NCBI GenBank assembly: GCA_944393475.1
Contig: CALYAI010000003.1
Coordinates: 1-37,787, forward strand
Direction of reading: 5' to 3'
Source of the DNA: an uncultured Clostridia bacterium
Lineage (GTDB): Bacteria; Bacillota; Clostridia; TANB77; CAG-508
DNA length: 37,787 bases
Part shown: positions 5,636 through 33,649 of the stretch, piece after piece
How positions within the stretch are numbered: the first letter of the stretch is position 1
How the letters are laid out: each line of letters starts with the position of its first letter
Made by a program: the position numbers and the translations under genes
The notes under the pieces: model-generated
What the model was told of the DNA's origin: nothing
Database searches by the model: none
Seen by the model: only the letters and a program-made list of their open reading frames with translations

Positions 5636-5676
5636 AAAAACCACCTATTAATAATATAAATGAATAGGTGGTTTTT
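5636..5676 (+). promoter_or_regulatory. Inverted repeat (terminator-like) covering the RBS of the SpoVB-like gene and overlapping a possible SigE-type promoter
   Basis: AAAAACCACCTATT-13 nt-AATAGGTGGTTTTT is a perfect 14-bp stem. GTATA-N16-AATATAAAT resembles the SigE ATA-N16-cATAcanT consensus. Confidence 0.6.
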
Positions 5677-7200
5677 TTGAGGAAAGTAAAATTATTTATT
5701 ATAAATGGGCTTGCTCTATTTTTTATATCATTTTTTTTACAACTTATTGGTGTATCTTTTGGAGTGTATATATCTAATAGAATTGGTGATGAAGCCGTTG
5801 GATTATATCATTTATTAATGTCTACCTATTCTTTTGGAATTACTCTTGCCTTTTCTGGAATTAACTTAGCTTGTACCCGTATTGTGTCCGAAGAACTTGC
5901 AGTAAAGAATTTAAAAAATATAAAAATAGTCATGAGAAATTGCTTGCTATATAGTTTATTTTTTGGTATATTCGCTTTTCTTTTATTTTCTTCATTAGCA
6001 AATGTAATTTCTAAAAATATTTTACATAGCAAAATATCTATTAGTACAATTTGTATAATGGCCTTTTCCTTTCCATTTGCTTCTATTTGTTCTTGCTTAA
6101 GTGGTTATTTTTCTGCTGTTAGACATATTGTTAAAAGTGCAGTAGTACAAATCGCAGAACAAATATTTAAAATGGCTATTGTTGGTTTATTCCTAAGCTA
6201 TTTCTTCGATTCTTCTATTAATTCTGCTTGTTTGCTAATAGTGTTAGGAAATAGTATTTCCGAGGTTCTTTCCTGCTTTATTATGTTTCTTATTTATAAA
6301 TTTGATAGAAATAAATTATATAAAAAATATGGATACAAAGAAAATAATTTAAATTCTAATAATATTACAAAGAGGATTTTTAATATATCTCTTCCAATTT
6401 CGTCCACTACATATATTAAATCTGGACTATCTACTTTAAAGCAAATATTAATTCCAATAAAGCTGGAAGCTTTTGGACTAACTTGTAGTGAAGCTCTTTC
6501 TAAATATGGTATGATTAACGGAATGGTTTTCCCCATACTTTTATTTCCCAGCACCCTTTTGGGATCTTTTAGTGGACTTCTTATTCCTGAGTTTTCCTCT
6601 TTTAACATAAAGGGAGAAAATGAAATTATAAAAAATTCCATATATAAAATAATTAAATATACTTTAACATTTTCTTTTTTTATACTTGGGGTTTTCTTTT
6701 GTTTTGCTAATGAATTAAGTTTTTTAATTTATCATAATAATGAAATTGCTGAATATATAATATTTCTTACTCCAATAATTCTTTTTATGTATTTGGATAA
6801 TATCGTTGACGGAATTTTAAAAGGATTAAATAAACAAGTTAGTGTTATGATTATAAACATTATAGATTTAATAAGTACAATTTTCTTAATTTGGCTATTA
6901 TTGCCACTTTATGGCATTAAAGGATATTTATGTGTCTTATTTATTAGCGAAATTTTAAATTGTGGATTAAGTATTATCGTATTATTAAAATCTACTAAGT
7001 TAAAATTTGATTTAAAACAGTGGGTAATAAAGCCTTGCTTCGCTTTTTTTATAAGTACTATTATTCTTAATTTTATAAAAATAAGTTCATATAGTATTTT
7101 CCCTTTAATGGTAAATTTAATAATTTATGCTTTTATCTTTTGTATAGTATGTTTTTTTGTTAAGCTAATTTCGAAAAAAGAAATTAATTATTTTCTATAA
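5677..7200 (+). CDS. spoVB: SpoVB/MurJ-like MOP-superfamily flippase (stage V sporulation protein B-like)
   Basis: About 14 TM segments with VYISNRIGDEAVGLYHL, GYFSAVRHIVKSAVVQIAEQ and GMINGMVFPILLFP. Start is probably TTG 5677 (RBS AGGTGG 5 nt upstream); the ORF track uses GTG 5668. Confidence 0.78.
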   Translation: MRKVKLFIINGLALFFISFFLQLIGVSFGVYISNRIGDEAVGLYHLLMSTYSFGITLAFSGINLACTRIVSEELAVKNLKNIKIVMRNCLLYSLFFGIFAFLLFSSLANVISKNILHSKISISTICIMAFSFPFASICSCLSGYFSAVRHIVKSAVVQIAEQIFKMAIVGLFLSYFFDSSINSACLLIVLGNSISEVLSCFIMFLIYKFDRNKLYKKYGYKENNLNSNNITKRIFNISLPISSTTYIKSGLSTLKQILIPIKLEAFGLTCSEALSKYGMINGMVFPILLFPSTLLGSFSGLLIPEFSSFNIKGENEIIKNSIYKIIKYTLTFSFFILGVFFCFANELSFLIYHNNEIAEYIIFLTPIILFMYLDNIVDGILKGLNKQVSVMIINIIDLISTIFLIWLLLPLYGIKGYLCVLFISEILNCGLSIIVLLKSTKLKFDLKQWVIKPCFAFFISTIILNFIKISSYSIFPLMVNLIIYAFIFCIVCFFVKLISKKEINYFL

Positions 7201-7618
7201 TAATTAATACTTCATCTTCATTAATTATTTCTTTTTTTACTAGCTCATTATTAAAAATATAATGAACTAGTATTTTTATATTTTTTTCTTTATCTTGAAT
7301 TTCCATAATATCATGATGCTCTTCCTTACTATATGCACACATATCTATGTTATCTAAAATTTCTATATTTTTATTGTTTTGGCAAAAATATGCCCAATAT
7401 TTGTATGCAACATTGTCTACTTCTTTCTTTTTACAAACCGAAATAATTATATCTTGGTTTTTTGCTAAGATATTAATACCTTTAAAAATTTCTTTTCTTA
7501 TTTCTTTTATTATATCTATTTTTTCTATTTTTGTTTTAATTACTTTGTTTAAAAAATTAATTATCTCTTTAGTGTTGTTTTCTATATATTTTTTTAGAAA
7601 TTCTAATTTTATATTCAC
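7184..7618 (-). CDS. Hypothetical protein, apparently a degenerate Rpn/PD-(D/E)XK nuclease-family homologue
   Basis: Strong RBS GAGGAAGGAG before GTG. Blocks IINFLNKVIKTKIEKIDI, YKYWAYF, IEILD, EHH and LVHYIF follow the Rpn-family order. Confidence 0.65.
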   Translation of the reverse strand: MNIKLEFLKKYIENNTKEIINFLNKVIKTKIEKIDIIKEIRKEIFKGINILAKNQDIIISVCKKKEVDNVAYKYWAYFCQNNKNIEILDNIDMCAYSKEEHHDIMEIQDKEKNIKILVHYIFNNELVKKEIINEDEVLIIIENN

Positions 7619-7657
7619 AACAAAAAAGTCTCCTTCCTCAAGAGTTATATGTTACAT

Positions 7658-7686
7658 ATTAAAACATATTTAAATAATTTTTACAA
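7658..7686 (-). promoter_or_regulatory. SigA-type promoter for the 144-aa gene
   Basis: Minus strand TTGTAA-17 nt (ending TGT)-TTTAAT. Confidence 0.5.
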
Positions 7687-7695
7687 GATTATTCG

Positions 7696-7712
7696 TTCGA
7701 CATAATTCGACA
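7696..7712 (-). promoter_or_regulatory. Two tandem Spo0A boxes (TGTCGAA)
   Basis: TTCGACA at 7696-7702 and 7706-7712 both match TGNCGAA on the minus strand; 10-bp period; intergenic. Confidence 0.7.
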
Positions 7713-7729
7713 TATTTCATTTATGTTTT

Positions 7730-8857
7730 TTACCCCAGAGTTAAATTTAAAACATTTGTGTTGTTTCCTCTTTTATATTCTATCTCTATAATGTCTCCAG
7801 GATTTTTTGTATAAATATATTCTTTTATATCATTAATTGTATATATTTCCATTCCATCAATTTTTAGAATTATATCTCCTTTTCTTAATCCACTATTTTC
7901 TGCTGGTCCTCTAGCAGTTACACTTTCTATATATACTCCACTATCTAAATTTAAAGATTTATCTATATAAGAAATTATATCTTTGTCATACCCGGAAATT
8001 CCAATTATGGCTTCTTTAAACTCACCCGTAGTATTATACTTATCTATTATTGGTTTTAATATATTTATTGGCACAGCAAAACCAATTCCTTCTGCAGAGT
8101 CAATTTTTAAAGAATTTATACCTATAACTTCACCATTTGTATTAATTAATGGTCCTCCACTATTTCCCGGATTTATTGTTGCATCTGTTTGTATTAGATC
8201 AGTCATTAATACTTCTTCCCCATTTTCATTAAATTTTATCGTTCTAGACTTTGCACTTATTATTCCAGCAGTAACTGTTCTTTCAAATTCATAACCAAGA
8301 GGATTTCCCACAGCATATACTGTCTGTCCTGCCTGCACATTATCCGAATTTCCTAATTTTATACTCTGTAATCCTTTCATATTTATTTTTACTATGCTTA
8401 AGTCCATATCTGAATCTGCCCATACGACTGTTGCTTCATATGTGTTACTATTTTCTAAGGTTACATAGCAAGTACTATATTTATCACCCGAAACATGTCT
8501 ATTCGTTATTATATATCCATTTGCAGATGCTATAACACCTGTTCCCAATCCTAATTTTTCTATTCCATCCTCTGCTAAAACAGAACTTCCCATGTTTTGT
8601 AGTTTGGAAATTCCTACAACACTATGGTTAACTTCTTCTATCATCTCCTCTATCCCAATATCTTTTTCTTCTTTTTGAGTCGTAGTCTGCATGGTCCTAT
8701 CTACTTTTAAATCTTCATCTATTTTTGCTATATCAGTTCTTATATATAATCTTACTAAAGAGATTGTTAAAACCATTATTAGAGCAATTACAAATATAAT
8801 AAATAGTATATTTGTAATTCTTCTTTTTTTCTTTTTAGTTCTTTTGTATTCCTGCAT
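7730..8857 (-). CDS. htrA: HtrA/DegP-family serine protease (TM, trypsin-like domain, PDZ)
   Basis: TNRHV, MDLSIVKI, IQTDATINPGNSGGPL and a C-terminal PDZ (GPAENSGLRKGDII). ATG 8857 follows RBS AAGGGG; the ORF track extends to TTG 8905. Confidence 0.93.
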   Translation of the reverse strand: MQEYKRTKKKKRRITNILFIIFVIALIMVLTISLVRLYIRTDIAKIDEDLKVDRTMQTTTQKEEKDIGIEEMIEEVNHSVVGISKLQNMGSSVLAEDGIEKLGLGTGVIASANGYIITNRHVSGDKYSTCYVTLENSNTYEATVVWADSDMDLSIVKINMKGLQSIKLGNSDNVQAGQTVYAVGNPLGYEFERTVTAGIISAKSRTIKFNENGEEVLMTDLIQTDATINPGNSGGPLINTNGEVIGINSLKIDSAEGIGFAVPINILKPIIDKYNTTGEFKEAIIGISGYDKDIISYIDKSLNLDSGVYIESVTARGPAENSGLRKGDIILKIDGMEIYTINDIKEYIYTKNPGDIIEIEYKRGNNTNVLNLTLG

Positions 8858-8951
8858 AAACTTCAACCCCTTTTTGGTAAACTTTGTTATATTTATATTT
8901 TCCAAAAACTAATTTTTAATACAAATTTCATCAAGTATTTTTACTTTTCTA

Positions 8952-8981
8952 TTGAATTTTCACAAGTTATAAATATATAAT
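8952..8981 (+). promoter_or_regulatory. SigA-type promoter for the NRPS-kinase operon
   Basis: TTGAAT-18 nt-TATAAT, then RBS AAAGGATGTG before ATG 9020. Confidence 0.6.
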
Positions 8982-9019
8982 AAGTTTAAATTGATTTTTG
9001 ATACAAAGGATGTGATTAG

Positions 9020-12000
9020 ATGAATAAATATCCATTAGCTTTTCCTCAGCTAGCTCTTTGGAGTGTAGAACAGTTTTTTAAAGGAACAAGTGTTAATGTA
9101 ATAACTGGATATATAAAAGTAAAGGAACAGCTTGATCTTGCATTGTTCGAAGAAGCTGTGCAAACAGTTATTGCTAATACGGATATTTTTGGTGTTCATA
9201 TCTCATACCAAAATGATGAGTTAATGCAAACTTTTAATAAAATGGAACGTAGAAAACTTACAATCGTTAATTTTAAAAATGAAGATGAGTTTACTACTTT
9301 TTTAAACACTGTAGCAACAACTTCTTTTGATATTTTTAATGATGATTTATTTGAATTCACTCTTTTTAAATTTCCAGATGGTACTGGTGGTGTTATTGGT
9401 CGTTTTCATCATATTATATGTGATGCATGGTCAATGAGCCTTGTTATTACAAAAATAATGTCAATATACGAGAATTTAAAAAACAAACTTCCAGCTACTC
9501 AAGGAATAGATTTTGAATCATATATTAATTACATTAATTCTGAACAGGAATATATAGGTAGTGCTAAATACGAAAAATCCAAAGAATTTTGGTTAAATAC
9601 TTTTACTAATAATTTTTCTTATAGCTATTTATGTAACAATATTTCTAATTCTTGTAGTGCACTAAGACAAAAATATTCAATTTCTAAAGATTTAGTTAAG
9701 AATTTGAATGATTTTTGCCAAGCAAATTCCATTTCACTTCCATTGTTATTAATTTCTGTTATAGGAATTTATTTAGCAAAAATTAATGATAATACATGTT
9801 CTACTATTGGTCTTCCAATACTAAATAGAACAAATTTTAAGGAAAAAAATACTATTGGTGCATATATAAGTACCATTCCTTTTAAGATAAATATTTCAAC
9901 TGAAGAAAAATATTTGGATTTTATTAAAAACCTAAAGAAAAATTATTTTGAGATACTAAGAAACCAAAAATATCCATATAATAAAATCTTGGAAGATATC
10001 AGGAAGAAGACAAATGTTTCTAAAAACCTTTACGACGTAGCTTTTTCCTACCAAAATGCTAGGGATAATCATTCTACATCAAATATTTCTTACGAAAGTG
10101 ATTGGATTTTTAATGGCTGTGTTTCTAATAATATGGATATACATATATATGATATGGATAACACTGGGGATTTATCTATAATCTTTGATTATAGAAAGGA
10201 TTTGTTTAATTCATCTGATGTAGAGGAAATTTACTGTAATTTAATGAATATTTTAAAACAAATTATGAATAATCCAAACATCTTGTTAAAAGATATTTCA
10301 CCAGTAGCTAGAGTTGTTAAGGATTTTATTTTAAATGAATATAATAATACTTCTTCTAAGTACCCAGGAGAAATTCCAATTATTAGACTATTCGAAGCCC
10401 AAGCTAAGAAAACTCCTAATAAACTTGCCATAGTAGAAGAAAAAAAAGAATTAACATATTCGGAACTTTTAAATTGCATTAATAATTTGGCATATAGGCT
10501 TACAGCTTCTGGCATTAAATATAAAGATAATGTATGTTTATTCTTCGATAATTCAGTTGAATTAGTCGCTTTGATTTTAGCATGTTTAAAGATAGGTGCT
10601 TGCTATATTCCATTAAACACTTCTTTCCCAATCGAAAGAGTTAAATATATTATGGAAGATAGTAATTCTTCTGCAATTATTACTAATTCAAAAAATGTGA
10701 AGAAAATACCTGGATTTACTAATTCCATCGTAATTAATTATGAGGATTTAGAATTTTCATCTAATAAGGATTACAATGAAGATTTATTAAATTCAGATGA
10801 CTTAGCATATACGATTTATACTTCAGGCTCAACAGGAAATCCAAAAGGAGTTCAAATTGCAAATAGAAGCTTAGTAAATTATATTTATTGGTGTACAAAA
10901 CAATATGTGGCTGGCGAAACCGCAAATTTTCCACTATATTCTTCCATTGCATTTGACCTAACAGTAACATCTGTTTTTACTCCTTTAATTTCTGGAAATG
11001 CAATATATGTATATAATAATTCTAATCCTGAATTATTAATTAAAGAAATTGTAGAAGATAAAAAAATACAGGTACTAAAATTAACCCCTGCACATCTTAC
11101 TTTATTATTAGATGTTGCAACTCCTGACACCTGTATTAAAAAATTAATTTTAGGTGGAGATATCTTAACTGCAGAAATATGTAAAGCAATTACAAATAAA
11201 TTACATAATGGAATAAAAATATATAATGAATATGGTCCGACAGAAGCAACAGTTGGCTGTATGATATATGAATATAGCCTTTTGGATGATTATGTCTCTG
11301 TTCCAATTGGAAGACCAATAGATAATGTGAAAATTTATATATTTAATTCGTCAATGAATTTAATGCCATATAATACTATTGGTGAAATGTATATTGGCGG
11401 AGATTGCCTATCTAAGGGATATTTAAATCTTCCAGAAGTTAATAAAAAAAGTTTTGTACAAAATCCTTTTAATAAAAAAGAAGTACTTTACAAAACCGGT
11501 GATTTAGCTGTAATGCATCCTAATGGAGTTATGGAATACATAGGTAGATCGGATTTTCAAATTAAAATTAATGGATATAGAATAGAAACCGGAGAGGTTC
11601 AATCACAAATACTAAAATATCCATCAATTAAGGATTGTTATGTTATAGATATGAAAATAAAAAATAACAAAGAGCTTTGTGCATACTATATAGAATCTGA
11701 ACCTGTTAATATTGATGATTTAATTGCTACATTGGACAAAAAATTACCAAATTATATGATCCCTAAATATTTCATAAAAATGGATTCATTGCCAATGACA
11801 GTTAATGGTAAGGTAAATAGAAAAGAATTACCTCTTCCTGTAATAAAAAGGAAAGTGGCTCTTATACCTCCTGAAAATGAAGTGGAGGAAAAACTTTGTA
11901 AGGTATTTTGCGAAATTTTAGAGATTAAAAAGATAGGTACAAATGAAAACCTTTTTGATTATTATTTAGATTCTTTAAGCTTAATAAAAGCACAGACTAA

Positions 12001-13297
12001 ATTATATTCAGAAGGATATAATTTGGATACACAGGATTTTTATAATAATAAAACAATTAAAAATTTAGCAGATTATATAATTGGTGGTTATAAAAAAGAA
12101 GAAACAAATAATGAAGAGCTAACAGATATTCATTTTTCGATATCTGATATTCAAAAAGATTTAAAAGCACCCGTAAAAATTAAAAATGTATTGTTATTTG
12201 GTGCAACTGGATTTTTAGGTGTTCATTTACTTCGTGAATTACTAATGAAAACAAATTATAATATATATTGTTTAATTAGAAGCAAGAACAATATAAATCC
12301 AACCGAAAGATTAAAAGAGAAAATAAATTTCTATTATCCAGATACGGATATTAGCAAATATGTAGATAGAGTTACTATTTTGGAAGGAAATTTATTGGAC
12401 GAACATTTTGGATTACAAGATGATGAATATAATAATTTACTAAATACTATTGATGTTTGTATACATTCTGCTGCACTTGTAAAACACTATGGAGACTATA
12501 ATTTATTCCATCAGACAAATGTTGTCTCTACAGAAAAAATAATTGAATTCTGTAATGCAGGACATAGTAAGTTGGAATATATTTCTACAATTTCTGTTTC
12601 AGGATTTGGATTAGTGGACACACCTATTGCTGAATTTAGCGAAAACAATTTATATATTGGTCAAAATTATAAAGATAATGTATATGTACATAGCAAATTC
12701 GAAGCAGAGTATTTAATAATAGAAGCTTGCAAAAATACGAATTTAGTAGCAAGTATTTATAGAATTGGTAATCTTTCTAACAGATATAGTGATGGTGTTT
12801 TCCAAGAAAATGCATTAGAAAATTCTTCTTTAAATAGAATAATTGCATGTATAAACTTAGGTTGCTATCCAAAAGAATTAGAAGATTTTCATTTGGAATT
12901 TTCACCTGTTGATATTTGTGCAAAGAATATTGTTTCTTTAATGAATTGTCAAGATAAAAATTTAAAAGTATATCATTTATATGATGATCACTTTACAGAT
13001 TTCGGAAAGATTAATAAGATTTTAAAAAAGAATAATATAAATTTAAAGTCAGTTACGGCAAAAGATTTTAAAGATAGTTTATTAAATGATAAAAATAATT
13101 ATTTTGGTTTTGCAAATTTAATAAATAATACTATTACTAGTAATTTAAAAATAAGTAATAAAATTACAGAAGATACTTTAGTAAAGCATAATTTATGTTG
13201 GCCAGAAATTAATTCTTCTTATATACAAAAAATTATTGATTATTTAATAAAAAATAAATTTATAAAAGGAGCAAAAGATGAAGAAAAATCCAATTAA
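9020..13297 (+). CDS. Single-module non-ribosomal peptide synthetase, C-A(Asn-like)-T-R (terminal thioester reductase)
   Basis: C: RFHHIICDAWS. A: YTSGSTGNPKG, FDLTV, NEYGPTE, YKTGDL, GRSDFQIKINGYRIE, NGKVNR. T: LDSL. R: VLLFGATGFLG, ISTISV, YVHSK. Confidence 0.95.
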   Translation: MNKYPLAFPQLALWSVEQFFKGTSVNVITGYIKVKEQLDLALFEEAVQTVIANTDIFGVHISYQNDELMQTFNKMERRKLTIVNFKNEDEFTTFLNTVATTSFDIFNDDLFEFTLFKFPDGTGGVIGRFHHIICDAWSMSLVITKIMSIYENLKNKLPATQGIDFESYINYINSEQEYIGSAKYEKSKEFWLNTFTNNFSYSYLCNNISNSCSALRQKYSISKDLVKNLNDFCQANSISLPLLLISVIGIYLAKINDNTCSTIGLPILNRTNFKEKNTIGAYISTIPFKINISTEEKYLDFIKNLKKNYFEILRNQKYPYNKILEDIRKKTNVSKNLYDVAFSYQNARDNHSTSNISYESDWIFNGCVSNNMDIHIYDMDNTGDLSIIFDYRKDLFNSSDVEEIYCNLMNILKQIMNNPNILLKDISPVARVVKDFILNEYNNTSSKYPGEIPIIRLFEAQAKKTPNKLAIVEEKKELTYSELLNCINNLAYRLTASGIKYKDNVCLFFDNSVELVALILACLKIGACYIPLNTSFPIERVKYIMEDSNSSAIITNSKNVKKIPGFTNSIVINYEDLEFSSNKDYNEDLLNSDDLAYTIYTSGSTGNPKGVQIANRSLVNYIYWCTKQYVAGETANFPLYSSIAFDLTVTSVFTPLISGNAIYVYNNSNPELLIKEIVEDKKIQVLKLTPAHLTLLLDVATPDTCIKKLILGGDILTAEICKAITNKLHNGIKIYNEYGPTEATVGCMIYEYSLLDDYVSVPIGRPIDNVKIYIFNSSMNLMPYNTIGEMYIGGDCLSKGYLNLPEVNKKSFVQNPFNKKEVLYKTGDLAVMHPNGVMEYIGRSDFQIKINGYRIETGEVQSQILKYPSIKDCYVIDMKIKNNKELCAYYIESEPVNIDDLIATLDKKLPNYMIPKYFIKMDSLPMTVNGKVNRKELPLPVIKRKVALIPPENEVEEKLCKVFCEILEIKKIGTNENLFDYYLDSLSLIKAQTKLYSEGYNLDTQDFYNNKTIKNLADYIIGGYKKEETNNEELTDIHFSISDIQKDLKAPVKIKNVLLFGATGFLGVHLLRELLMKTNYNIYCLIRSKNNINPTERLKEKINFYYPDTDISKYVDRVTILEGNLLDEHFGLQDDEYNNLLNTIDVCIHSAALVKHYGDYNLFHQTNVVSTEKIIEFCNAGHSKLEYISTISVSGFGLVDTPIAEFSENNLYIGQNYKDNVYVHSKFEAEYLIIEACKNTNLVASIYRIGNLSNRYSDGVFQENALENSSLNRIIACINLGCYPKELEDFHLEFSPVDICAKNIVSLMNCQDKNLKVYHLYDDHFTDFGKINKILKKNNINLKSVTAKDFKDSLLNDKNNYFGFANLINNTITSNLKISNKITEDTLVKHNLCWPEINSSYIQKIIDYLIKNKFIKGAKDEEKSN

Positions 13298-15281
13298 AAA
13301 ATTATTATTAATTCATATGGTCCTTATGGCCTTTATATGTATAATGCTATATTTGCTTATACCATATGTATTAAATTATCCACCAAATTCTATAGATAAT
13401 GACTTTCAGATCGAAGTTGTTGGAATAAAATATAGTACTCAATTTATAATTTTAGCAGTTGTTCTTTCTATTTTTATTTTTACAGCTCTAATGTTTTTAT
13501 ATAATATGCTTTCTTTAAAAAAGATAAGAAATAAAAGTACTAATAAAATTGATGCTAAACAAGTAGAAAAAATAAGGAAAAGAAGTTTTACTTTTCCTTA
13601 TCTAGTATTACTACTTACTTTATTAGTGCCACCGTCTGTTGTATGTTTTTGTTTATTTTTATTTAATACAACACCGGAACTGAACTTAAGAATAACAATT
13701 ATAATCTTCTGTATGTCTGCAATATTTTCGATATGTTCGTATATTGCAAATAAGAGCTTTTTTATAAATACTTTGGTAAAAACGTCAAAAATATCTAATA
13801 ACAAAGTATCTGGTTTAAGACTTAATTTATATACCAAAATATTATTACAGATGTTACCAATATTCTTATATTCATTTATAATTATATTGTTATTATCTTT
13901 ATCTTTACTAACAACGGAGAAAGGTGACTTAATTTATAATTTATATCATCAGGAGCTTTCTAATTATTTCTCTGACAAAAGTAAAGTATATGATATAAAT
14001 GAATTACCAAATATATTAAAAGAAAATATAGAATTACAAAACCCAGAAGATAATTTCTTTATTATATCTTGCACAGATGGTAAGATACATTATTCAGAAG
14101 AAGAATTAAATACATTCTTCCAAAAATATTTAAGTGAATTTTACGATAAGACAAATGGACATATTTATGATAACTATGGTCAGAATATAGAAGGAAGTGC
14201 AATAAAGATACATACAAATGAAGGAGATTGCTATATTGGTGTTAGGTTCTATGTATTCTCTACTTCTTTTGTAACACCATTTATAATTGCAACAATAATA
14301 TTAATCTTCTTTAATATATTATTCGTATTATATATTAGTAAGGATTTAAGTAATGATATTAAAACCATAAGTAGGCAACTAAAAGCAATTGCAGCTTCCG
14401 ATGATATCTCTAATGAGCATAATTTACCAGTTACCTCAAATGATGAATTAGGTGACTTAACTATTGCATTTAATAGGGTTCAAGATAAAACAAAAGAATA
14501 TAATGATACTATTAAATCAAATCAAGAAACTCTTATGGAAAGTGAACGTCTAGCATCTCTAGGACAATTGATTGGAGGAATTGCTCACAATCTAAAAACA
14601 CCTATTATGTCAATTTCTGGTGCAGCAGAAGGATTAACAGATCTAGTAAAAGAATATGATTCTTCTATAGACGATCCAGAAGTAACTTCTGCAGATCACC
14701 ATGATATTGCAAAAGATATGAATGAGTGGATCGGAAAAATTAAAACATATGCAGAATATATGTCTGATATCATAACTGTTGTTAAAGGTCAAGCTGTAAA
14801 TCTTTCTTCTGATAATAATATGTATTTTAAAATTGATGAGTTGTTAAAAGATATTAATATTTTGATGAAGCATGAATTAAAGAGTGCTCTTGTTACATTG
14901 GATATTCATAATTATGTTGGCTCAGATGTACAAATAAATGGTGACGTTAATGCTTTGGTTCAAGTAATTAATAATATGATAACAAATGCTATACAAGCAT
15001 ATAATGGGGAACCAAATAAAACTATAAATTTAACCTTAAAAACAGATGCTTCTAAGTTATTCATAGAAGTTCAAGATTCTGGCTCTGGAATGCCTGACGA
15101 AGTAAAGGATAAATTATTTAAAGAAATGATTACTACAAAAGGTAAAAATGGTACTGGACTAGGATTATTTATGTCCTACTCTACTATAAAAGCACATTTT
15201 AATGGTAATATAGATTTTGAATCTGAACTTGGAAAAGGAACTACTTTTATAATAACCATTCCATTACCAAAGCTTAAATAA
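13278..15281 (+). CDS. Sensor histidine kinase (about 6 TM, extracytoplasmic loop, HAMP, HisKA, HATPase)
   Basis: HAMP LPVTSNDELGDLTIAFN; H-box LGQLIGGIAHNLKTP; N-box QVINNMITNA; DSGSGM; GTGLGL. Overlaps the NRPS 3' end by 20 nt; RBS AAAGGAG. Confidence 0.95.
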   Translation: MKKNPIKKLLLIHMVLMAFICIMLYLLIPYVLNYPPNSIDNDFQIEVVGIKYSTQFIILAVVLSIFIFTALMFLYNMLSLKKIRNKSTNKIDAKQVEKIRKRSFTFPYLVLLLTLLVPPSVVCFCLFLFNTTPELNLRITIIIFCMSAIFSICSYIANKSFFINTLVKTSKISNNKVSGLRLNLYTKILLQMLPIFLYSFIIILLLSLSLLTTEKGDLIYNLYHQELSNYFSDKSKVYDINELPNILKENIELQNPEDNFFIISCTDGKIHYSEEELNTFFQKYLSEFYDKTNGHIYDNYGQNIEGSAIKIHTNEGDCYIGVRFYVFSTSFVTPFIIATIILIFFNILFVLYISKDLSNDIKTISRQLKAIAASDDISNEHNLPVTSNDELGDLTIAFNRVQDKTKEYNDTIKSNQETLMESERLASLGQLIGGIAHNLKTPIMSISGAAEGLTDLVKEYDSSIDDPEVTSADHHDIAKDMNEWIGKIKTYAEYMSDIITVVKGQAVNLSSDNNMYFKIDELLKDINILMKHELKSALVTLDIHNYVGSDVQINGDVNALVQVINNMITNAIQAYNGEPNKTINLTLKTDASKLFIEVQDSGSGMPDEVKDKLFKEMITTKGKNGTGLGLFMSYSTIKAHFNGNIDFESELGKGTTFIITIPLPKLK

Positions 15282-15304
15282 CTTATAGATTAATTATATT
15301 TTTC

Positions 15305-15345
15305 AAAAAGAACTAATTGGTTGATTTCCAATTAGTTCTTTTTTT
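15305..15345 (+). terminator. Intrinsic terminator after the kinase
   Basis: AAAAAGAACTAATTGG-7 nt-CCAATTAGTTCTTTTTTT. Confidence 0.85.
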
Positions 15346-15373
15346 ACAAATTTATGTTTTTTTCGATTTTTTA

Positions 15374-15402
15374 TTGCTTTTGTGCCTGTTTATTTATATA
15401 AT
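15374..15402 (+). promoter_or_regulatory. SigA-type promoter for the response regulator
   Basis: TTGCTT-17 nt-TATAAT, then AGGAGG at 15412-15417. Confidence 0.65.
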
Positions 15403-15426
15403 TTTTATATTAGGAGGACTGTCAAT

Positions 15427-16455
15427 ATGAGAAAGAATCAAGTTACAGCCAAAAGCACTGGTTTTAAAATAATTGGTGTTGACGATGAACAAGGAATCTT
15501 AGATTCTCTATCTATTTTTATGAAAAGATCTGGCTACGAATTTGTAGGAATAACAGATCCATTAGAAGCAATTAATCGCGTAAAATCTAAACATTTTTAT
15601 TTAATGATACTAGATTTTATTATGGATCCAATTCATGGTGATAAAGTTGTAGAAGAAATTCGTAAATTTAATAAAGATTTATATATTTTACTTCTAACTG
15701 GACACAAAGATTTGGCTCCACCACTAGAAACGATCCATCAATTGGATATACAGGGTTATTGTGAAAAAAGTGATAAGTTCGATCAATTATTGCTATTAAT
15801 AGAATCTGGCTTAAAGTCTGTAAGTCAAATGAGAACTATTAGTAAAATGAATGATGATCTACAAAAAGCATATATGGATAGTATAGAAATTCTAAGACAT
15901 ACAGTAGAAGCAAAGGACCCATATACAAAAGGGCATTCTGACAGAGTTTCTGCATATGCTGTTTTGCTTGGTCAGAAGTTGTCTTTGGCTGGAGAAGATA
16001 TAGAAAAGTTAAGAATTGGTGGACTTTTTCATGATATAGGAAAAATTGGTATCCCGGACAGTATTCTTTTAAAAGAATCTAAATTAACAGACGAAGAATA
16101 TGCAAAGATTAAAGAGCATCCAGTAATTGGCTATAATATGTTGGAACATGCAACGATGTTTAATGATATTCTAGATATTGTAAAATATCATCATGAAAAA
16201 TTTGATGGTTCTGGTTATCCTGAGCAAATAGCAGGTTCTAATATTCCTTATCTCGCAAGGATTACAGCTGTTGTAGATGCCTTTGATGCAATGACTTCAA
16301 AAAGAAGTTATAGAGATTCTTTACCAATGGATGTTGTAAAATCTGAAATATTAGCAAACCTTGGTTCTCAATTTGATCCAGAAATAGGTATCGCATTTTT
16401 AGATATTTTAGATAATAATTTTAATGCCATTAAAGAAATACAAGAAAAGTATTAA
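15427..16455 (+). CDS. Response regulator with REC and HD-GYP cyclic-dinucleotide phosphodiesterase domains (RpfG-like)
   Basis: REC: VDDE, phosphoacceptor ILDFIM, LLTG, CEKS. HD-GYP: YTKGHSDRV, LFHDIGKI, HHEKFDGSGYP, VVDAFDAMTSKRSY. ATG 15427 follows AGGAGG; the ORF-track start at 15382 is too long. Confidence 0.94.
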   Translation: MRKNQVTAKSTGFKIIGVDDEQGILDSLSIFMKRSGYEFVGITDPLEAINRVKSKHFYLMILDFIMDPIHGDKVVEEIRKFNKDLYILLLTGHKDLAPPLETIHQLDIQGYCEKSDKFDQLLLLIESGLKSVSQMRTISKMNDDLQKAYMDSIEILRHTVEAKDPYTKGHSDRVSAYAVLLGQKLSLAGEDIEKLRIGGLFHDIGKIGIPDSILLKESKLTDEEYAKIKEHPVIGYNMLEHATMFNDILDIVKYHHEKFDGSGYPEQIAGSNIPYLARITAVVDAFDAMTSKRSYRDSLPMDVVKSEILANLGSQFDPEIGIAFLDILDNNFNAIKEIQEKY

Positions 16456-16497
16456 TTACTTTTTGTATTAATATAATTAATTAAGGAGGGGATTTTA

Positions 16498-17463
16498 ATG
16501 GTTTTAACTGCTTCAGAAACAAGAAAGCAAGCTAGAGAATCTTTAAAAGGTAAATGGGGAACTGTTGCTATAATATCTTTAATATTTATAGCATATTCAT
16601 TTTTAATGGGCTTTCTTTCTGCAATACCTTTTCTAGGTTTCTTAGTTTCTATTGCTTCAATTGTTATTAATTTTCCAATTATGTATGGATTTGTAATGAA
16701 TTTTATGAAGCTAAAAAGAGGAGAAGAAGTAGGATATTTTGATTTCTTTAAGGATGGTTTTGCAAATTTTGGAAGAGCATGGTCTGTTCTAGGAAGATTA
16801 TTACAAAAAATGTTAGTACCACTTATTTTACTAGTAGTTGCTGTAATTATTGTAATAGTTGCATTGGTTGGAGTAATAGCTTCAGCAGGTCTTGCTATTG
16901 CTTCTATGGGAGCTTATGTATCTTCTGAGACAGCATTATCTTATCTATTATCAAATGTATCAGTATTTTCATTAGTAGCTATGCTTATAGCTGTTATACT
17001 AGAATTTATTGCTTACATATGGATAATTATTAAATCTTTCCATTATGGACTTGGAATGTATATCGCAATAGATAACCAAAATGCAACAGCACTTGAATGC
17101 ATGAACCAAAGTAAAGAAGTTATGGACGGACATAAAGGTCGTTTATTCAGCTTATATTTATCTTTCATCGGTTGGATTTTACTTGATATGTTATTAGCTG
17201 CAATTCCTGTTGTAGGTGTTATATTATCATATGCAGGATTAGTATTCCTAATACCATATATGCAATTTGCTTCTATTATTTTCTACGAAGATAGAATGGG
17301 AATAAATTCACCTGTAACTGCAGAAGGAACAGTTGCATCAGAAGATTCTGAAAGTAATTCAAACGAAAATGTAGAAAGCAAAGAAATAAAAGAAATGTCT
17401 GGTTCTACAGATGTAAAAGCAGAAATTGTTGATATACCAGAAATAGATAATAAAGACGAATAA
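16498..17463 (+). CDS. DUF975-like integral membrane protein with acidic tail
   Basis: N-terminal ETRKQARESLKGKW, SKEVMDGHKGRLFSLYLSFIGW and LIPYMQFASIIFYE; about 6 TM; RBS AAGGAGG. Confidence 0.8.
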   Translation: MVLTASETRKQARESLKGKWGTVAIISLIFIAYSFLMGFLSAIPFLGFLVSIASIVINFPIMYGFVMNFMKLKRGEEVGYFDFFKDGFANFGRAWSVLGRLLQKMLVPLILLVVAVIIVIVALVGVIASAGLAIASMGAYVSSETALSYLLSNVSVFSLVAMLIAVILEFIAYIWIIIKSFHYGLGMYIAIDNQNATALECMNQSKEVMDGHKGRLFSLYLSFIGWILLDMLLAAIPVVGVILSYAGLVFLIPYMQFASIIFYEDRMGINSPVTAEGTVASEDSESNSNENVESKEIKEMSGSTDVKAEIVDIPEIDNKDE

Positions 17464-17474
17464 TAATTAAATAA

Positions 17475-17510
17475 ATAAAAACTTCTTAGATTATTCTAAG
17501 AAGTTTTTAT
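17475..17510. terminator. Bidirectional terminator between the DUF975-like gene and tex
   Basis: ATAAAAACTTCTTAGA-TTAT-TCTAAGAAGTTTTTAT, a perfect 16-bp stem between convergent genes. Confidence 0.9.
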
Positions 17511-19664
17511 TTACCCTATTTTCATAGAAAGTTTTACTTTTTGTCTTTCATTATCTATTCCAATAACTTTTACCTTTACAATATCTCCTACAGATACTAT
17601 GTCTGATGGATTTTTTACAAATTTTTCACTCATCTCTGATATGTGGACAAGTCCATCATGTTTTACTCCAATATCCACAAATGCTCCAAAGTCAATAACA
17701 TTTCTTACTGTTCCTGTTAATATCATTCCCTCTTTTAAATCCTCGAACTTTAGTACATCCTGTCTTAATATTGGTTTTGGCATATCTTCCCTAGGATCTC
17801 TTCCTGGTTTAGAAAGTTCATCTATTATATCTTTTAATGTCATTTCTCCTACATCAAGCTTTTTAGCGGTTTCTCCAAGTTTTACATCCAATAGTTTCTT
17901 TCTTATTTCAACTAATTTTTCTTTATCCTTTAAATCTTCAGTTCCATATCCTAGTGATTTAAGTAATTCTTCTGCTATTCCATAACTCTCTGGGTGAACA
18001 GCTGTATTTTCCAATGGATTTTTTCCATCAGGAATTCTAATAAAGCCTGCACATTGCTCGAATGCTACTTTCCCTAATTTTGGAACTTTTAATAATTCTT
18101 TTCTTTCTTTTAATTTTCCATTTTCGTCCCTATATTTAACAATGTTTTTTGCAATAGTTTTATTTATTCCAGATACATAAGAAAGTAATGATGGGGTAGC
18201 TGTATTAACATCAACTCCTACTTTGTTAACACTATCTTCTACTACACCTGCTAAGCTTTCTTCCAATTTCTTTTGATTTACATCATGTTGGTATTGACCT
18301 ACACCAATTGATTTTGGATCTATTTTTACAAATTCTGCAAGTGGATCTTGTAATCTTCTTGCAATGGAAATTGCCCCTCTTATAGAAACATTTATGTCTG
18401 GATACTCTTCTGTTGCAAGTTTAGATGCAGAATATACAGATGCTCCTGCTTCGCTTACTATTGTGTATAATACTTTGTGATCACATTTTTTTATCATTTC
18501 AGAAACAAACATCTCGGATTCTCTTGAGGCTGTTCCATTTCCTATTGCAATCATATCTACATGGTCTTTATTTATTAATCTAACTAATTCCTTTTCTGCT
18601 CCAACTATATCATTTTGTGGCTCTGTTGGATATACTGTTGTAATATCCATTACTTTACCTGTTTCATCTATTATTGCAATCTTACAACCAGTTCTATATG
18701 CTGGGTCAAATCCCATAACAGTAATTCCTTTTATTGGGGCTCCAAGTAATAATTGTTTTGCATTTTTCCCAAAAACTTTTATTGCTTGTTCTTCTGCTTT
18801 TTCCGTTAGATCTGATCTTATCTCCCTATCTACAGATGGCTCTATTAATCTTTTAAAGCTATCTTCCACAGTTGCTTTTAAATATTCTGTAAATTGAGTT
18901 TCTCCCTTTATTATGTCTTCTTCTATTTTTCCTAAAATCTTTTCTTCATCTTTTATGATTTTTACTTTTAAGAATTCTTCTTTTTCTCCCCTATTAATAG
19001 CAAGTATTCTATGGCTAGGCATTTTATTTACATTTTCACTATAGTCATAATACATCTCGTATGCAGATCTTTCATCTGGCTTTGTTGCTTTTGTTTCTAT
19101 AGTACCTTTAGAATATATCATTTGCTTTATCATTTTTCTATATTCTGGATTGTCAGATATCATTTCTGCAATAATATCCAATGCTCCCTGAATTGCCTCT
19201 TCTACAGTTTTTACTTCTTTTTCTTCATTAATAAACTGTTCTGCTATTTCTTTTATATCTCTTTTTTCTTCTTGAGCCAAAATAATTTCTGCTAAAGGCT
19301 CCAATCCCTTTGCTTTCGCAACAGTTGCTCTTGTCTTTTTCTTTTGCTTATATGGTCTATATATATCTTCTACTTCTGCAAGTGTTGTTGCATTTTGTAA
19401 GTCTTGTTTTATTTCATCTGTTAATTTCCCTTGCTCATTTATAGAATTTTCAACCTCTTCTTTTCTTTTTTCTAAGTTTCTTAAGTATGTTAATCTTTCG
19501 CCAAATGTTCTTAAGATTTCGTCCGAAAGACCTCCAGTTACTTCTTTTCTATATCTAGCTATAAAAGGAATTGTATTGCCTTCATCTATTAAATTTATAG
19601 TATTTTGCACTTGGCTTTGTTTAATATTTAATTCCTCAGCTATTATTTGTATAATTTTATCCAT
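17511..19664 (-). CDS. tex: Tex-family RNA-binding transcription accessory protein (YqgF, HHH and S1 domains)
   Basis: GNTIPFIARYRKE, GFDPAYRTGCK, AIGNGTASRESE, SIGVGQYQHD, and S1 FGAFVDIGVKHDGLVHISE. Probable start MDKII at 19664. Confidence 0.95.
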   Translation of the reverse strand: MDKIIQIIAEELNIKQSQVQNTINLIDEGNTIPFIARYRKEVTGGLSDEILRTFGERLTYLRNLEKRKEEVENSINEQGKLTDEIKQDLQNATTLAEVEDIYRPYKQKKKTRATVAKAKGLEPLAEIILAQEEKRDIKEIAEQFINEEKEVKTVEEAIQGALDIIAEMISDNPEYRKMIKQMIYSKGTIETKATKPDERSAYEMYYDYSENVNKMPSHRILAINRGEKEEFLKVKIIKDEEKILGKIEEDIIKGETQFTEYLKATVEDSFKRLIEPSVDREIRSDLTEKAEEQAIKVFGKNAKQLLLGAPIKGITVMGFDPAYRTGCKIAIIDETGKVMDITTVYPTEPQNDIVGAEKELVRLINKDHVDMIAIGNGTASRESEMFVSEMIKKCDHKVLYTIVSEAGASVYSASKLATEEYPDINVSIRGAISIARRLQDPLAEFVKIDPKSIGVGQYQHDVNQKKLEESLAGVVEDSVNKVGVDVNTATPSLLSYVSGINKTIAKNIVKYRDENGKLKERKELLKVPKLGKVAFEQCAGFIRIPDGKNPLENTAVHPESYGIAEELLKSLGYGTEDLKDKEKLVEIRKKLLDVKLGETAKKLDVGEMTLKDIIDELSKPGRDPREDMPKPILRQDVLKFEDLKEGMILTGTVRNVIDFGAFVDIGVKHDGLVHISEMSEKFVKNPSDIVSVGDIVKVKVIGIDNERQKVKLSMKIG

Positions 19665-19695
19665 TTCTTTCTCTCCCATCACACATATAAATTAT

Positions 19696-21279
19696 CTATT
19701 CTATACCTAAATATTCATTATATGTGCATTCCTTATCTACAATTTTTCCACCTTTTTTAATATCTATAATTCTATCTGCTACTGTTTGCATTAATTGATG
19801 GTCATGTGATGCAAATATCATATTTCCTTTAAATCTCTTCATTCCTTCATTTAATGCTGTAATGCTTTCCATATCTAGGTGGTTTGTAGGTTCATCAAAT
19901 ATTAGGAAGTTTGCACCAGATAGCATTATCTTAGAAAGTACACATCTTACTTTTTCTCCACCTGATAATACTTTTATATTTTTTAGTGCTTCATCTCCAG
20001 AAAATAACATTCTACCTAAAAAGCTTCTTACATATGTTTCGTCAGGATCTTTTGAATATTGTCTTAGCCAATCTGTTATATTTAAGTCTTGTGTAAACAA
20101 ATAACTATTATCCTTAGGGAAATATGCTTTTGTAATTGTTGTTCCAAAACTTATAGTTCCAGAATCCGGTTCCATTTCTCCCGCTAATATTTGGAATAGT
20201 ACTGTTCTTGCATTCTCGTTATCTGCTAATACTGCAATTTTATTATCTGCTTTTACAGTAAAGCTTACATTATCTAATAATTTTTCACCATCTACGGTTT
20301 TAGTTAGGTTTGTAACTGTTAATATATCATTTCCAACATCTCTATCAGGTTTAAAATCTATATATGGATACCTTCTATTAGAAGGTTTTATTTCGTCTAA
20401 TTGGATTTTTTCTAGAGATTTCTTCCTTGATGTTGCTTGTTTAGATTTAGATGCATTTGCACTAAAACGAGCAATAAATTCTTGTAATTCCTTAATCTTC
20501 TCTTCTTTCTTTTTATTTGCTTCTTTCATTTGTTTTAATGCAAGTTGACTAGATTCGTACCAGAAATCATAATTTCCTGGATATACTTTAATTTTTCCAA
20601 AGTCAACATCTGCAATATGTGTACATACTTTGTTTAAGAAATATCTATCATGTGATACTACAATTACAGTGTTTTCAAAATTAATTAAGAATTCTTCTAA
20701 CCATTGAATTGTAGTTAGATCTAGGTCATTTGTAGGTTCATCCAATAATAATACATCTGGATTTCCAAATAAACTTTGTGCAAGTAATATTTTTACTTTT
20801 TCCCTATCTTCAATTTCTTTCATTTGTTTATAATGGTTTTCTGGTGAAATTCCTAAGTCATTTAATAATGTTTCTGCATTTGTTTCTGCATTCCATCCAT
20901 CTAGTTCTGCAAATCTTTCTTCTAGTTTAGCCGCTTTCATTCCGTCTTCTTCCGTAAAATCTTCTTTTGCATATATTTCTTCTTTTTCTTTCATTATTTT
21001 ATATAGTTCTTGGTCACCCATTATAACCGTGTCCAATACACTATAATCATCATATGCAAAGTGATCTTGTTTTAATATAGATATTCTTTCTCCTTTATCT
21101 ATACTTACATCACCTTTACTTGGCTCTAATTCTCCAGAAAGAACTTTTAAAAAAGTAGATTTTCCTGCACCATTTGCACCTATTATTCCGTAGCAGTTTC
21201 CTTTTCCGAATTTAATATTTACGTCTTCAAATAAAACTCTTTTTCCAAAACGAACTGTTACACCATTTACAGATAGCAT
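19696..21279 (-). CDS. ABC-F family ATPase (YkpA/YbiT-like)
   Basis: Two ABC domains and no TM: GANGAGKST, LLLDEPTN, VSHDRYFLN, linker FIARFSANASKSKQATSRKK, LSGGEK, DEPTNHLD. Confidence 0.93.
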   Translation of the reverse strand: MLSVNGVTVRFGKRVLFEDVNIKFGKGNCYGIIGANGAGKSTFLKVLSGELEPSKGDVSIDKGERISILKQDHFAYDDYSVLDTVIMGDQELYKIMKEKEEIYAKEDFTEEDGMKAAKLEERFAELDGWNAETNAETLLNDLGISPENHYKQMKEIEDREKVKILLAQSLFGNPDVLLLDEPTNDLDLTTIQWLEEFLINFENTVIVVSHDRYFLNKVCTHIADVDFGKIKVYPGNYDFWYESSQLALKQMKEANKKKEEKIKELQEFIARFSANASKSKQATSRKKSLEKIQLDEIKPSNRRYPYIDFKPDRDVGNDILTVTNLTKTVDGEKLLDNVSFTVKADNKIAVLADNENARTVLFQILAGEMEPDSGTISFGTTITKAYFPKDNSYLFTQDLNITDWLRQYSKDPDETYVRSFLGRMLFSGDEALKNIKVLSGGEKVRCVLSKIMLSGANFLIFDEPTNHLDMESITALNEGMKRFKGNMIFASHDHQLMQTVADRIIDIKKGGKIVDKECTYNEYLGIE

Positions 21280-31648: not shown

Positions 31649-31685
31649 AGGAACACCCCTTAATTGCATAAATATTATTATTATC

Positions 31686-31714
31686 AATATAGCAACATAT
31701 TTTTCTTAATTCAA
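31686..31714 (-). promoter_or_regulatory. SigA-type promoter for the surface-protein operon
   Basis: Minus strand TTGAAT-17 nt (ending TGC)-TATATT. Confidence 0.6.
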
Positions 31715-33161: not shown

Positions 33162-33234
33162 AATACATTCAACCCTTTCCAAGGCATAAATAGGTATGAA
33201 AGTTATTCTTTCGTACTATTTCCCTTTCAATATT

Positions 33235-33573: not shown

Positions 33574-33649
33574 TGGTGCACCACCGGGGGGTCGAACCCC
33601 GGACCTTCTGATTAAGAGTCAGCTGCTCTACCAACTGAGCTAGTGGTGC
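33574..33649 (-). tRNA. tRNA-Lys (anticodon CTT)
   Basis: 76-nt cloverleaf: acceptor GCACCAC/GTGGTGC-A-CCA, D arm AGCTCAGTTGGTAGAGC, anticodon loop CT-CTT-AA, T arm CGGGG-TTCGACC-CCCG. Confidence 0.97.

Follow-up and report, generated by a model that had tools for sequence, protein, structure and literature searches.

The agr (AgrBDCA) specificity groups of staphylococci and the comQXPA pherotypes of Bacillus are built on a ribosomal peptide with its processing enzyme and on a DNA-binding regulator. In the diffusible signal factor (DSF) circuit of Xanthomonas, the crotonase-type synthase RpfF works with RpfC, a hybrid kinase with REC and HPt domains, and with RpfG; in CqsA/CqsS, LqsA/LqsS and LuxM/LuxN a synthase lies beside a polytopic kinase that senses its lipid-like product, with output via phosphorelays to DNA or RNA regulators. 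Signals derived from nonribosomal peptide synthetases (NRPSs) are made by the Pseudomonas virulence factor PVF (PvfC) and valdiazen (ham) systems of Pseudomonas and Burkholderia, for which we know of no adjacent cognate sensor kinase. Here we analyse a 37,787-nt stretch of DNA from an uncultured Clostridia bacterium (assembly GCA_944393475.1, contig CALYAI010000003.1, positions 1 to 37,787; GTDB lineage Bacillota, Clostridia, TANB77, CAG-508), hereafter the window, in which an NRPS, a histidine kinase and a REC-HD-GYP response regulator are encoded together at 9020-16455. This unit is real, conserved and modular: the NRPS is co-inherited with exactly the sensor half of the kinase, a pattern known from pherotype systems.

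As in agr and comQXPA, a variable segment comprising the putative signal maker and the kinase sensor half is set between a conserved kinase core and regulator, and its alleles run against the species tree; unlike there, an NRPS serves as the putative signal maker and an HD-GYP enzyme as the regulator, and the polymorphism is seen between species representatives. The logic of synthase, membrane kinase and REC-HD-GYP protein is that of RpfF/RpfC/RpfG, with a regulator of the same domain family, whereas the synthase here has condensation, adenylation, thiolation and reductase domains (C-A-T-R), the kinase carries only HAMP, HisKA and HATPase_c, and the sensor regions are unrelated in sequence. 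The position of a small-molecule synthase beside a polytopic histidine kinase recalls CqsA/CqsS, LqsA/LqsS and LuxM/LuxN, but the synthase families and kinase sensors differ, and it is in those systems that phosphorelays lead to DNA or RNA regulators. Like PVF and valdiazen, the short NRPS is proposed to make a diffusible signal; those systems belong to Proteobacteria, have other domain orders and are not known to show cassette polymorphism. Valdiazen is called a signalling molecule in the abstract of PMC11659414.

The locus also resembles a family of 47 gut NRPS clusters that reportedly yields (N-acyl) dipeptide aldehydes and pyrazinones and is said to have been presented, by Guo et al. (Cell, 2017), as a source of host protease inhibitors: both are short reductase-terminated NRPSs of gut Clostridia, and some relatives of the window's gene have two modules. 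To our knowledge, neither a linked kinase and HD-GYP regulator nor class switching has been described for that family. A gut Clostridia NRPS family making peptide aldehydes and pyrazinones is summarised briefly in PMC12282076 and PMC8210680. In our literature search we came upon no account of an NRPS coupled like this to the sensor of a kinase, although a prior account in the 2017 paper or its supplements cannot be excluded.

Genes and domains of the window were defined from an open reading frame listing and a Pfam scan, and the unit comprises the following features:

9020..13297, + strand: single-module NRPS, C-A-T-R, 1425 residues (Pfam).
9023-10303 (C), 10391-11812 (A), 11888-12079 (T) and 12188-12931 (R), + strand: domains of the NRPS (Pfam).
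13278..14342, + strand: kinase sensor region, residues 1-355, with predicted transmembrane helices TM1-TM5, an extracytoplasmic PDC/PAS-like domain and TM6 (AlphaFold2).
14346..15281, + strand: kinase transmitter, with HAMP at 14346-14489, a dimerisation and phosphotransfer domain at about 14508-14867 with H-box AHNLKTP, and the catalytic ATPase at 14940-15269 (Pfam).
8990..14421, + strand: hypervariable cassette, the whole NRPS and the kinase sensor half to about residue 381, inside HAMP (blastn).
15305..15343, + strand: terminator-like hairpin between kinase and regulator, 16 bp, AT-rich and followed by Us (dG -18.6 kcal/mol).
15427..16455, + strand: response regulator REC-HD-GYP, 342 residues, RpfG family, with REC at 15472-15801 and HD-GYP at 15892-16386 (Pfam, motifs).

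By residue, the NRPS consists of Condensation (2-428), AMP-binding (458-802), AMP-binding_C (859-931), PP-binding (957-1020) and the thioester reductase NAD_binding_4 (1061-1304), and its catalytic motifs HHIICDA (C), DSLS (carrier Ser) and GATGFLG plus YVHSK (R) are kept across 81 relatives of all classes. The kinase (13278-15281, + strand, 667 residues) carries HAMP (357-404), HisKA (428-461) and HATPase_c (555-664), with H437 and the G-boxes invariant in the alignment of relatives. Its start codon, ATG 13278, follows an AGGAG and falls inside the NRPS gene, which ends at 13297, so that the two genes overlap by 20 nt. The hairpin downstream of the kinase folds with a z-score of -4.16, and none of 200 shuffled sequences was as stable; with its few G-C pairs it was passed over by a simple terminator scan. 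A preliminary description of this DNA, made from its letters, had noted a lone NRPS module overlapping a polytopic sensor kinase by 20 nt, a single terminator closing the pair, a response regulator with intact REC and HD-GYP motifs, and no tailoring enzyme, ABC exporter or DNA-binding regulator. All of this was borne out: the overlap and the AT-rich hairpin are as described, the regulator's translation holds every signature, six membrane helices appear in the AlphaFold2 model, and neither open reading frames nor Pfam reveal any of the three missing functions within 9020-16455. A MatE/Polysacc_synt membrane protein (5668-7200) lies nearby but is part of the conserved flank, and an ABC protein at 19696-21279, with two ABC_tran domains and ABC_tran_Xtn, reads as a probable ABC-F type.

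Linkage was assessed in 41 related genomes of 0.9-2.0 Mb each, including the window's own. An NRPS match was present in 38 of them and a kinase match (E <= 1e-30) in the same 38, and gene maps place the two as neighbours in 37; irregularities in the maps were a contig holding only a 3' NRPS fragment (genome G009), a kinase in pieces (G031) and genes at the ends of two contigs (G024). Scanning one-genome-per-species data with the kinase alignment matched at least 600 stretches, at least 582 of them encoding a relative. The best 80, taken as loci, come from uncultured Clostridia of human, mouse, chicken, rabbit and ruminant guts, including Clostridium sp. CAG:508 and CAG:571. The NRPS is directly upstream on the same strand in 74 of these other-species loci and follows the kinase in 2, a split gene or small open reading frame lies between the two in 2 and the locus begins at a contig edge in 2; the pair was thus found in 78 of 78 assessable loci. 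For finer comparison, 127 loci (the window, L013-L132 and L206-L211) were filtered for an intact one-module NRPS of 1380-1520 residues beside a kinase of 630-720 residues, which drops two-module NRPSs, HisKA_7TM loci and broken genes, giving 89 loci and, after removal of identical kinases, 81 pairs. The gap between NRPS and kinase is at most 30 nt in 69 of the 81 and the genes overlap in 24, while a REC-HD-GYP gene comes next in 58, stands elsewhere in the locus in 8 and cannot be judged for want of room in 7.

The arrangement extends beyond the order. In a class-wide sample, 14 of 399 scored genomes gave sensor matches, four of them outside the order (1.9-4.3 Mb, loci of GC content 0.40-0.44), all with NRPS, kinase and regulator in that order; housekeeping genes flank the trio there, namely MutS2 on one side and BipA on the other in the complete 4.3-Mb genome G393. 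Regulators linked to the pair in these genomes measure about 500 residues (L206:6506-8014 of G393, and L207-L209), and the G393 copy is REC-DUF3369-HD-GYP by Pfam, which is the architecture given for V. cholerae VCA0210 in part of a preprint by Galperin and Chou (bioRxiv 10.1101/2021.11.05.467447). Because the trio is kept across orders and in different flanks, NRPS, kinase and regulator form a self-contained unit, maintained through very different genomic backgrounds.

In the window, the unit and a fourth co-directional gene, DUF975, are bracketed by genes for an HtrA-type protease and Tex:

7730-8905, - strand: HtrA-type protease, divergent to the NRPS (Pfam).
8952..8981, + strand: promoter-like site TTGAAT-18 nt-TATAAT, upstream of the NRPS in the conserved left flank (10 of 12 matches in a consensus scan, which is weak and found fewer sites in the real sequence than in shuffles).
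16498..17463, + strand: DUF975 membrane protein (Pfam, gene maps).
17511-19682, - strand: Tex, convergent to the four-gene run (Pfam).

All gene maps from the window's genus show one and the same order: HtrA, NRPS-kinase-regulator-DUF975, Tex, ABC-F. DUF975 follows the regulator throughout this genus and is absent from that place in most other genera, so it is probably no core part of the unit; neither it nor HtrA was counted, both being conserved neighbours only within part of the order.

Against this constant background, the sequence between the flanks is a mosaic. In blastn alignments of the window with G011, G013 and G003, relatives of other classes, similarity breaks off at 8990, 8924 and 8992 and returns at 14421, 14424 and 14421, respectively; with same-class G007 it is unbroken over 7195-19682. 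Six further between-class pairs regain similarity at kinase residues 380-401, and in three of these it stops 26-79 nt short of the NRPS start. Percent identities to the window are bimodal: G011 shares 93% in Tex, 94% in ABC-F, 90% in the regulator and 79% in the kinase core, as against 37% in the NRPS and 31% in the sensor, its NRPS being no closer than those of other families of the order. G003 and G015 share 93% in HtrA, 91% in the kinase core, 97% in the regulator, 96% in Tex and 100% in ABC-F as against 36% in the NRPS and 34% in the sensor, and for G007 and G020 flanks of 97-99% contrast with 36% and 28%. Some relatives pair a two-module NRPS (C-A-T-C-A-T-R, about 2500 residues) with a shorter kinase of about 605 residues that matches the window's only from residue 360-410 onwards, the same junction as that of the cassette. 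The genomes that reveal the polymorphism represent different species, and their flanking proteins are 96-100% identical; a metagenome scan with the window's regulator returned 73 relatives, none above 89% identity. NRPS and kinase sensor therefore diverge together while kinase core and regulator stay conserved, which is one hallmark of agr/comQXP pherotypes, and this comparative pattern holds regardless of mechanism.

Phylogenies of 30 one-module loci point the same way. To label them we used conserved motifs as anchors for reading the ten A-domain specificity positions, which reportedly go back to Stachelhaus (1999). In the kinase-core tree the window's family forms a single clade (support 95) and the regulator tree follows taxonomy with codes intermixed, whereas sensor and NRPS trees group by A-domain code across families. 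In a mixture-model sensor tree, a DSELTAEVCK group uniting G002 of the window's family with G028 and G040 of another is supported at 97/97, a Gly-code group spanning two families at 92/98, and the window's class and the DVAYLGGICK class at 100/100 each. Approximately unbiased (AU) tests reject a single clade for the window's family both on the sensor (p = 0.0028) and on the NRPS (p = 3e-5), and on the kinase core they reject the two cross-family code groups (p = 0.0014 and 0.00066). The 81 pairs carry 25 exact codes, grouped into 14 coarse classes. Mapped onto their sensor tree, exact codes take 26 changes (minimum 24) and coarse classes 15 (minimum 13); shuffled labels average 62.3 and 58.4, their lowest counts being 56 and 51, and on the kinase-core tree the counts are 42 and 37. 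The interpretation of the pair as signal synthase and receptor, put forward in the preliminary description, is thus supported both by synteny, the kinase not usually occurring without the NRPS, and by tree congruence, NRPS and kinase-sensor trees agreeing with each other and disagreeing with the taxonomy that core and regulator follow.

Taken together, we consider it somewhat better than an even bet that the product of the NRPS is an N-acyl amino aldehyde or alcohol, that the sensor inherited with the NRPS detects this product, and that the system signals, in at least 14 specificity classes, via the HD-GYP regulator. The NRPS would load a single amino acid (here Asn or Asp), the N-terminal C domain would acylate it, and the terminal reductase would set it free as the N-acylated aldehyde or alcohol. 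The kinase, translated together with the NRPS, would then detect this product or a spontaneous derivative through its sensor of six helices and a PDC domain, and would alter the phosphorylation state of the REC-HD-GYP regulator, which would in turn change cyclic dinucleotide hydrolysis. Each of the at least 14 classes would pair one A-domain code with one sensor clade, and classes would be exchanged between lineages as a cassette, as in agr and comQXP pherotypes. In this scheme we infer the structure of the product, its identity with the ligand, cell-to-cell rather than autocrine signalling, phosphotransfer and the nucleotide substrate.

The window's A-domain code, DLTKIGEVGK, is mentioned in the Glu/Gln/Asp/Asn section of a survey of such codes (PMC12283262), and the NRPS is accordingly a candidate for loading Asn or Asp. 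Among the other class codes, DFWNIGMVHK is mentioned in the section on Thr-activating domains and DILQLGMIWK is given as Gly in the same survey, and DVWHFSLVDK is an exact match to the Ser domain of enterobactin synthetase in the relevant part of PMC3795760; about ten more classes have no assigned amino acid. The column mapping is supported, since codes read in this way match published ones letter for letter. The R domain (NAD_binding_4, 4.4e-46) has as its closest structures 6vtj (6e-40) and the AusA reductase 4f6c (1e-33). Being of the short-chain dehydrogenase/reductase type, with GxxGxxG and YxxxK following the carrier, it fits the reductase-terminated NRPSs of the AusA type and is predicted to release an aldehyde or alcohol. 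The C domain is first in the NRPS with HHxxxD intact, and its N-acylating role is suggested by this position.

Such a product could instead be mainly bioactive, a protease-inhibiting aldehyde or an antimicrobial directed at host or competitors, with the kinase sensing it for autoinduction or self-protection, much as NisK senses nisin, rather than for quorum sensing. The aldehyde-forming AusA type of the R domain would suit this, as would the HtrA-type serine protease gene found divergent beside the NRPS in 53 of the 81 loci and the gut NRPS family reported, in part of PMC12282076, to make peptide aldehydes that inhibit host cathepsins. However, the unit encodes neither immunity nor export, signalling dialects typically come in many exchangeable classes with matched sensors as seen here, and the output is a second-messenger enzyme rather than the regulator of a resistance operon. 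We therefore regard a primarily bioactive role as unlikely.

Alternatively, the kinase may sense an unrelated cue, be it from host, diet or envelope stress, and travel with the NRPS merely by adjacency, recombination ending in conserved HAMP and phosphotransfer-domain DNA. Homologous recombination needs conserved DNA, and kinase core and upstream flank alone could fix the breakpoints; the incongruence of Ser and Thr classes described below fits this too. Yet the pair persists in more than one order, between differing flanks and even where kinase precedes NRPS, the A-domain code fits the sensor tree almost perfectly (26 changes against the minimum of 24), a mismatched sensor clade on this kinase core beside an NRPS is never seen beyond the 2 extra changes, and translational overlap is common (24 of 81). 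Linkage without function is, on this evidence, improbable.

The sensor region itself was modelled with AlphaFold2 (kinase residues 1-420, alignment of 61 sequences; predicted local distance difference test score 87.4, predicted template modelling score 0.82). The model has five long helices (5-31, 52-76, 93-128, 133-170 and 184-230) and a sixth (329-373) running into HAMP, with an alpha/beta domain (240-325), part of the PDC/PAS-like region of about residues 231-328, between the fifth and sixth membrane helices. The K/R-rich loops 77-92 and 171-183 fall on one side, fitting the cytoplasmic side, and the alpha/beta domain is for this reason placed outside the cell. Foldseek with the sensor model returned no solved structure at E <= 0.001, the best, weak matches being the PDC/PAS-like sensor domains of KinD and CpxA. 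Among 1.84 billion protein representatives, the region matched 216 clusters at E <= 0.001, 144 at 1e-10 and 22 at 1e-30, and most of the matches listed were 600-700 residues long: the sensor family is small, very diverged and mostly of one length class. We found no concentration of specificity-determining positions in one part of the sensor, variation being spread over all helices and the PDC domain. That the polytopic N-terminus is a membrane dock or export path for a lipid-like product, the kinase reporting flux rather than extracellular concentration, would account for the missing exporter, for a six-helix bundle without solved counterpart and for a sensor region that co-varies with the NRPS as a whole and not only with the A pocket, but is hardly probable given that a PDC/PAS-like extracytoplasmic domain with a HAMP linker is the standard layout of a ligand-sensing kinase and that no transporter family in Pfam matched the region.

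If the kinase is a receptor for the NRPS product, the regulator would be its output. Translation of this gene more likely starts at ATG 15427, with AGGAGG at 15411-15416, than at GTG 15382. Its REC domain (Response_reg, 4.2e-14) holds the DD pair (VDDE), the phospho-acceptor D in LMILDF, T in LLLTGH and K in CEKS, and its HD-GYP domain (HD_5/HD; HD_5, 3.4e-37) holds FHDIGK and HHEKFDGSGYP. The RpfG family definition and the HD-GYP motif HHExh(D/N)GxGYP are given in part of bioRxiv 10.1101/2021.11.05.467447, and by its motifs the protein belongs in that family, with a receiver with acidic pocket, Asp, Thr and Lys, and an HD dyad together with that motif; other passages of the preprint note that some family members are inactive or act on cyclic GMP-AMP (cGAMP). 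The receiver motifs are kept in relatives except in G022 (L049:8059-9153), where a regulator stands at the same site but without the NRPS and this type of kinase, in a locus that keeps HtrA, an acyl-ligase-like gene, regulator, DUF975 and Tex. In this orphan, about 51% identical and on a long branch in the regulator tree, Ser replaces the phospho-acceptor Asp and DN the DD pair, while HD and HHE..GYP are retained; its receiver looks like one decaying after loss of the kinase. The regulator can thus be tied to the kinase, since G022, with no kinase of this type, has a regulator lacking the phospho-acceptor Asp. Other kinases of the window's genome that could be placed adjoin their own regulators. 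A genome holds 8-11 Response_reg matches, the REC-GGDEF protein among them.

Several observations weigh against the signalling interpretation. On the phylogenetic side, most trees are 'quick' LG+G4 trees with long-branch warnings; the groups compared in the AU tests were named after the trees had been seen, and long-branch joins were flagged. The sensor tree mixes Ser with Thr classes (G029, Ser, with G033, Thr; G032, Ser, with G037, Thr), whereas the NRPS tree separates them by code, and the physical adjacency of NRPS and sensor means that their shared history could reflect linkage alone. At the level of the locus, the regulator is missing from the locus examined in 8 of the 81 pairs despite room downstream, an unrelated HisKA_7TM kinase stands beside the same kind of C-A-T-R NRPS in another family of the order (f3), and Pfam identifies no separate exporter in the unit. 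Rfam at its gathering threshold finds only a tRNA in the window and no riboswitch near the operon, and at E <= 1 gives no match over 7600-9100. For biosynthesis, the C domain is nearer to an elongation C domain (TycC 2jgp, 1e-24) than to starter C domains (7c1h, 1.5e-11; 4jn3, 6e-6), and in the window's genus we found one small ACPS-type phosphopantetheinyl transferase per genome.

The nucleotide output adds to these. In the window's own genome the only two GGDEF-family proteins found are a REC-GGDEF protein that reads GGDDF and a membrane GGDEF-like protein that reads MGPKF (L214:820-1749 and L215:815-1936), and PilZ was found in 0 of 5 genomes of the genus, although control genomes did match. 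A cyclic di-GMP (c-di-GMP) riboswitch model, c-di-GMP-I, had no match in the five genomes, but none in control genomes either. Several further HD-GYP proteins are encoded in the genomes. The GGDEF and PilZ searches in the genus thus did not find the canonical c-di-GMP toolkit; c-di-GMP output is the weakest part of the reading, and the wording 'or other cyclic dinucleotide' is to be kept.

Some loci show further features of the unit and its surroundings. Where the regulator is separated or missing in G039 (L032:6823-8883), G029 (L018:5338-6762) and G037 (L029:12901-13878), mobile- or defence-like genes lie alongside (RecF/SMC-type ATPase, Bro-N, Schlafen/AlbA_2-Fic-like, phage integrase), which suggests that insertions broke up the unit. 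In family f3 (L041:6581-10172 of G026, L038:9819-11549 of G030) the NRPS is followed by a kinase, or by two, with about 33-38% identity to that of the window; Pfam assigns HisKA_7TM, an unrelated seven-helix sensor, to the kinase at 6581-8347 of G026, and the HD-GYP regulator is on another contig. Co-loss of NRPS, kinase and regulator in G001 and G018 was considered and rejected: Tex is also missing and HtrA is matched only by a 42% paralogue, and the region is probably missing from these assemblies, which were not counted as evidence.

Two genes bear on biosynthesis in relatives. In G036, of another family, a 195-residue Sfp-like phosphopantetheinyl transferase (ACPS plus AASDHPPT_N; L017:13820-14407) is encoded beside the NRPS. 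In several classes a gene for 514-600 residues lies between HtrA and the NRPS (e.g. L019:13786-15495 in G013), consisting of AMP-binding and AMP-binding_C_3 in the two copies scanned (G013 and G022); it falls inside the variable DNA in the DVAYLGGICK class and was labelled, incompletely, in 14 of the 81 loci. It could supply the acyl donor, yet it persists in G022 without the NRPS.

Elsewhere in the window, two giant tandem proteins (1474 and 1633 residues; 22372-31687, - strand) have SdrD_B and prealbumin-like fold domains, as surface adhesins typically do; second-messenger control could act on them, and nothing ties them to the NRPS-kinase-regulator unit. A PcsB-like M23 peptidoglycan hydrolase (31911-33182, - strand), a tRNA gene (33577-33649, - strand), a VanW/G5/PG_binding_4 protein (33762-35573, - strand) and a LexA-like repressor with HTH and Peptidase_S24 domains (35707-36276, + strand) are ordinary cell-envelope and housekeeping content.

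More broadly, and only tentatively, the locus may represent an undescribed and widespread class of cell-to-cell communication among small-genome gut Clostridia and some larger relatives. Its signals would be NRPS-made N-acyl amino aldehydes or alcohols in amino-acid dialects (Asn, Thr, Ser, Gly and at least ten others), each with its own sensor, swapped as cassettes between near-identical genomes and read out through a cyclic dinucleotide instead of a transcription factor. Pherotypes would then have evolved as in agr but with a non-ribosomal signal, for which we know of no earlier case. Given the comparative pattern, two or three synthetic genes would suffice for a direct test of the hypothesis. 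If it is true, the ligand class would be predictable from sequence, giving a panel of matched signal-receptor pairs for biochemistry and synthetic biology. It would also assign a role to some of the reductase-terminated NRPS genes that abound in gut Clostridia and have so far been discussed as sources of host-directed protease inhibitors. One-genome-per-species data contain at least 582 matching loci, and a quorum-type system would on this reading be present in hundreds of uncultured gut species.

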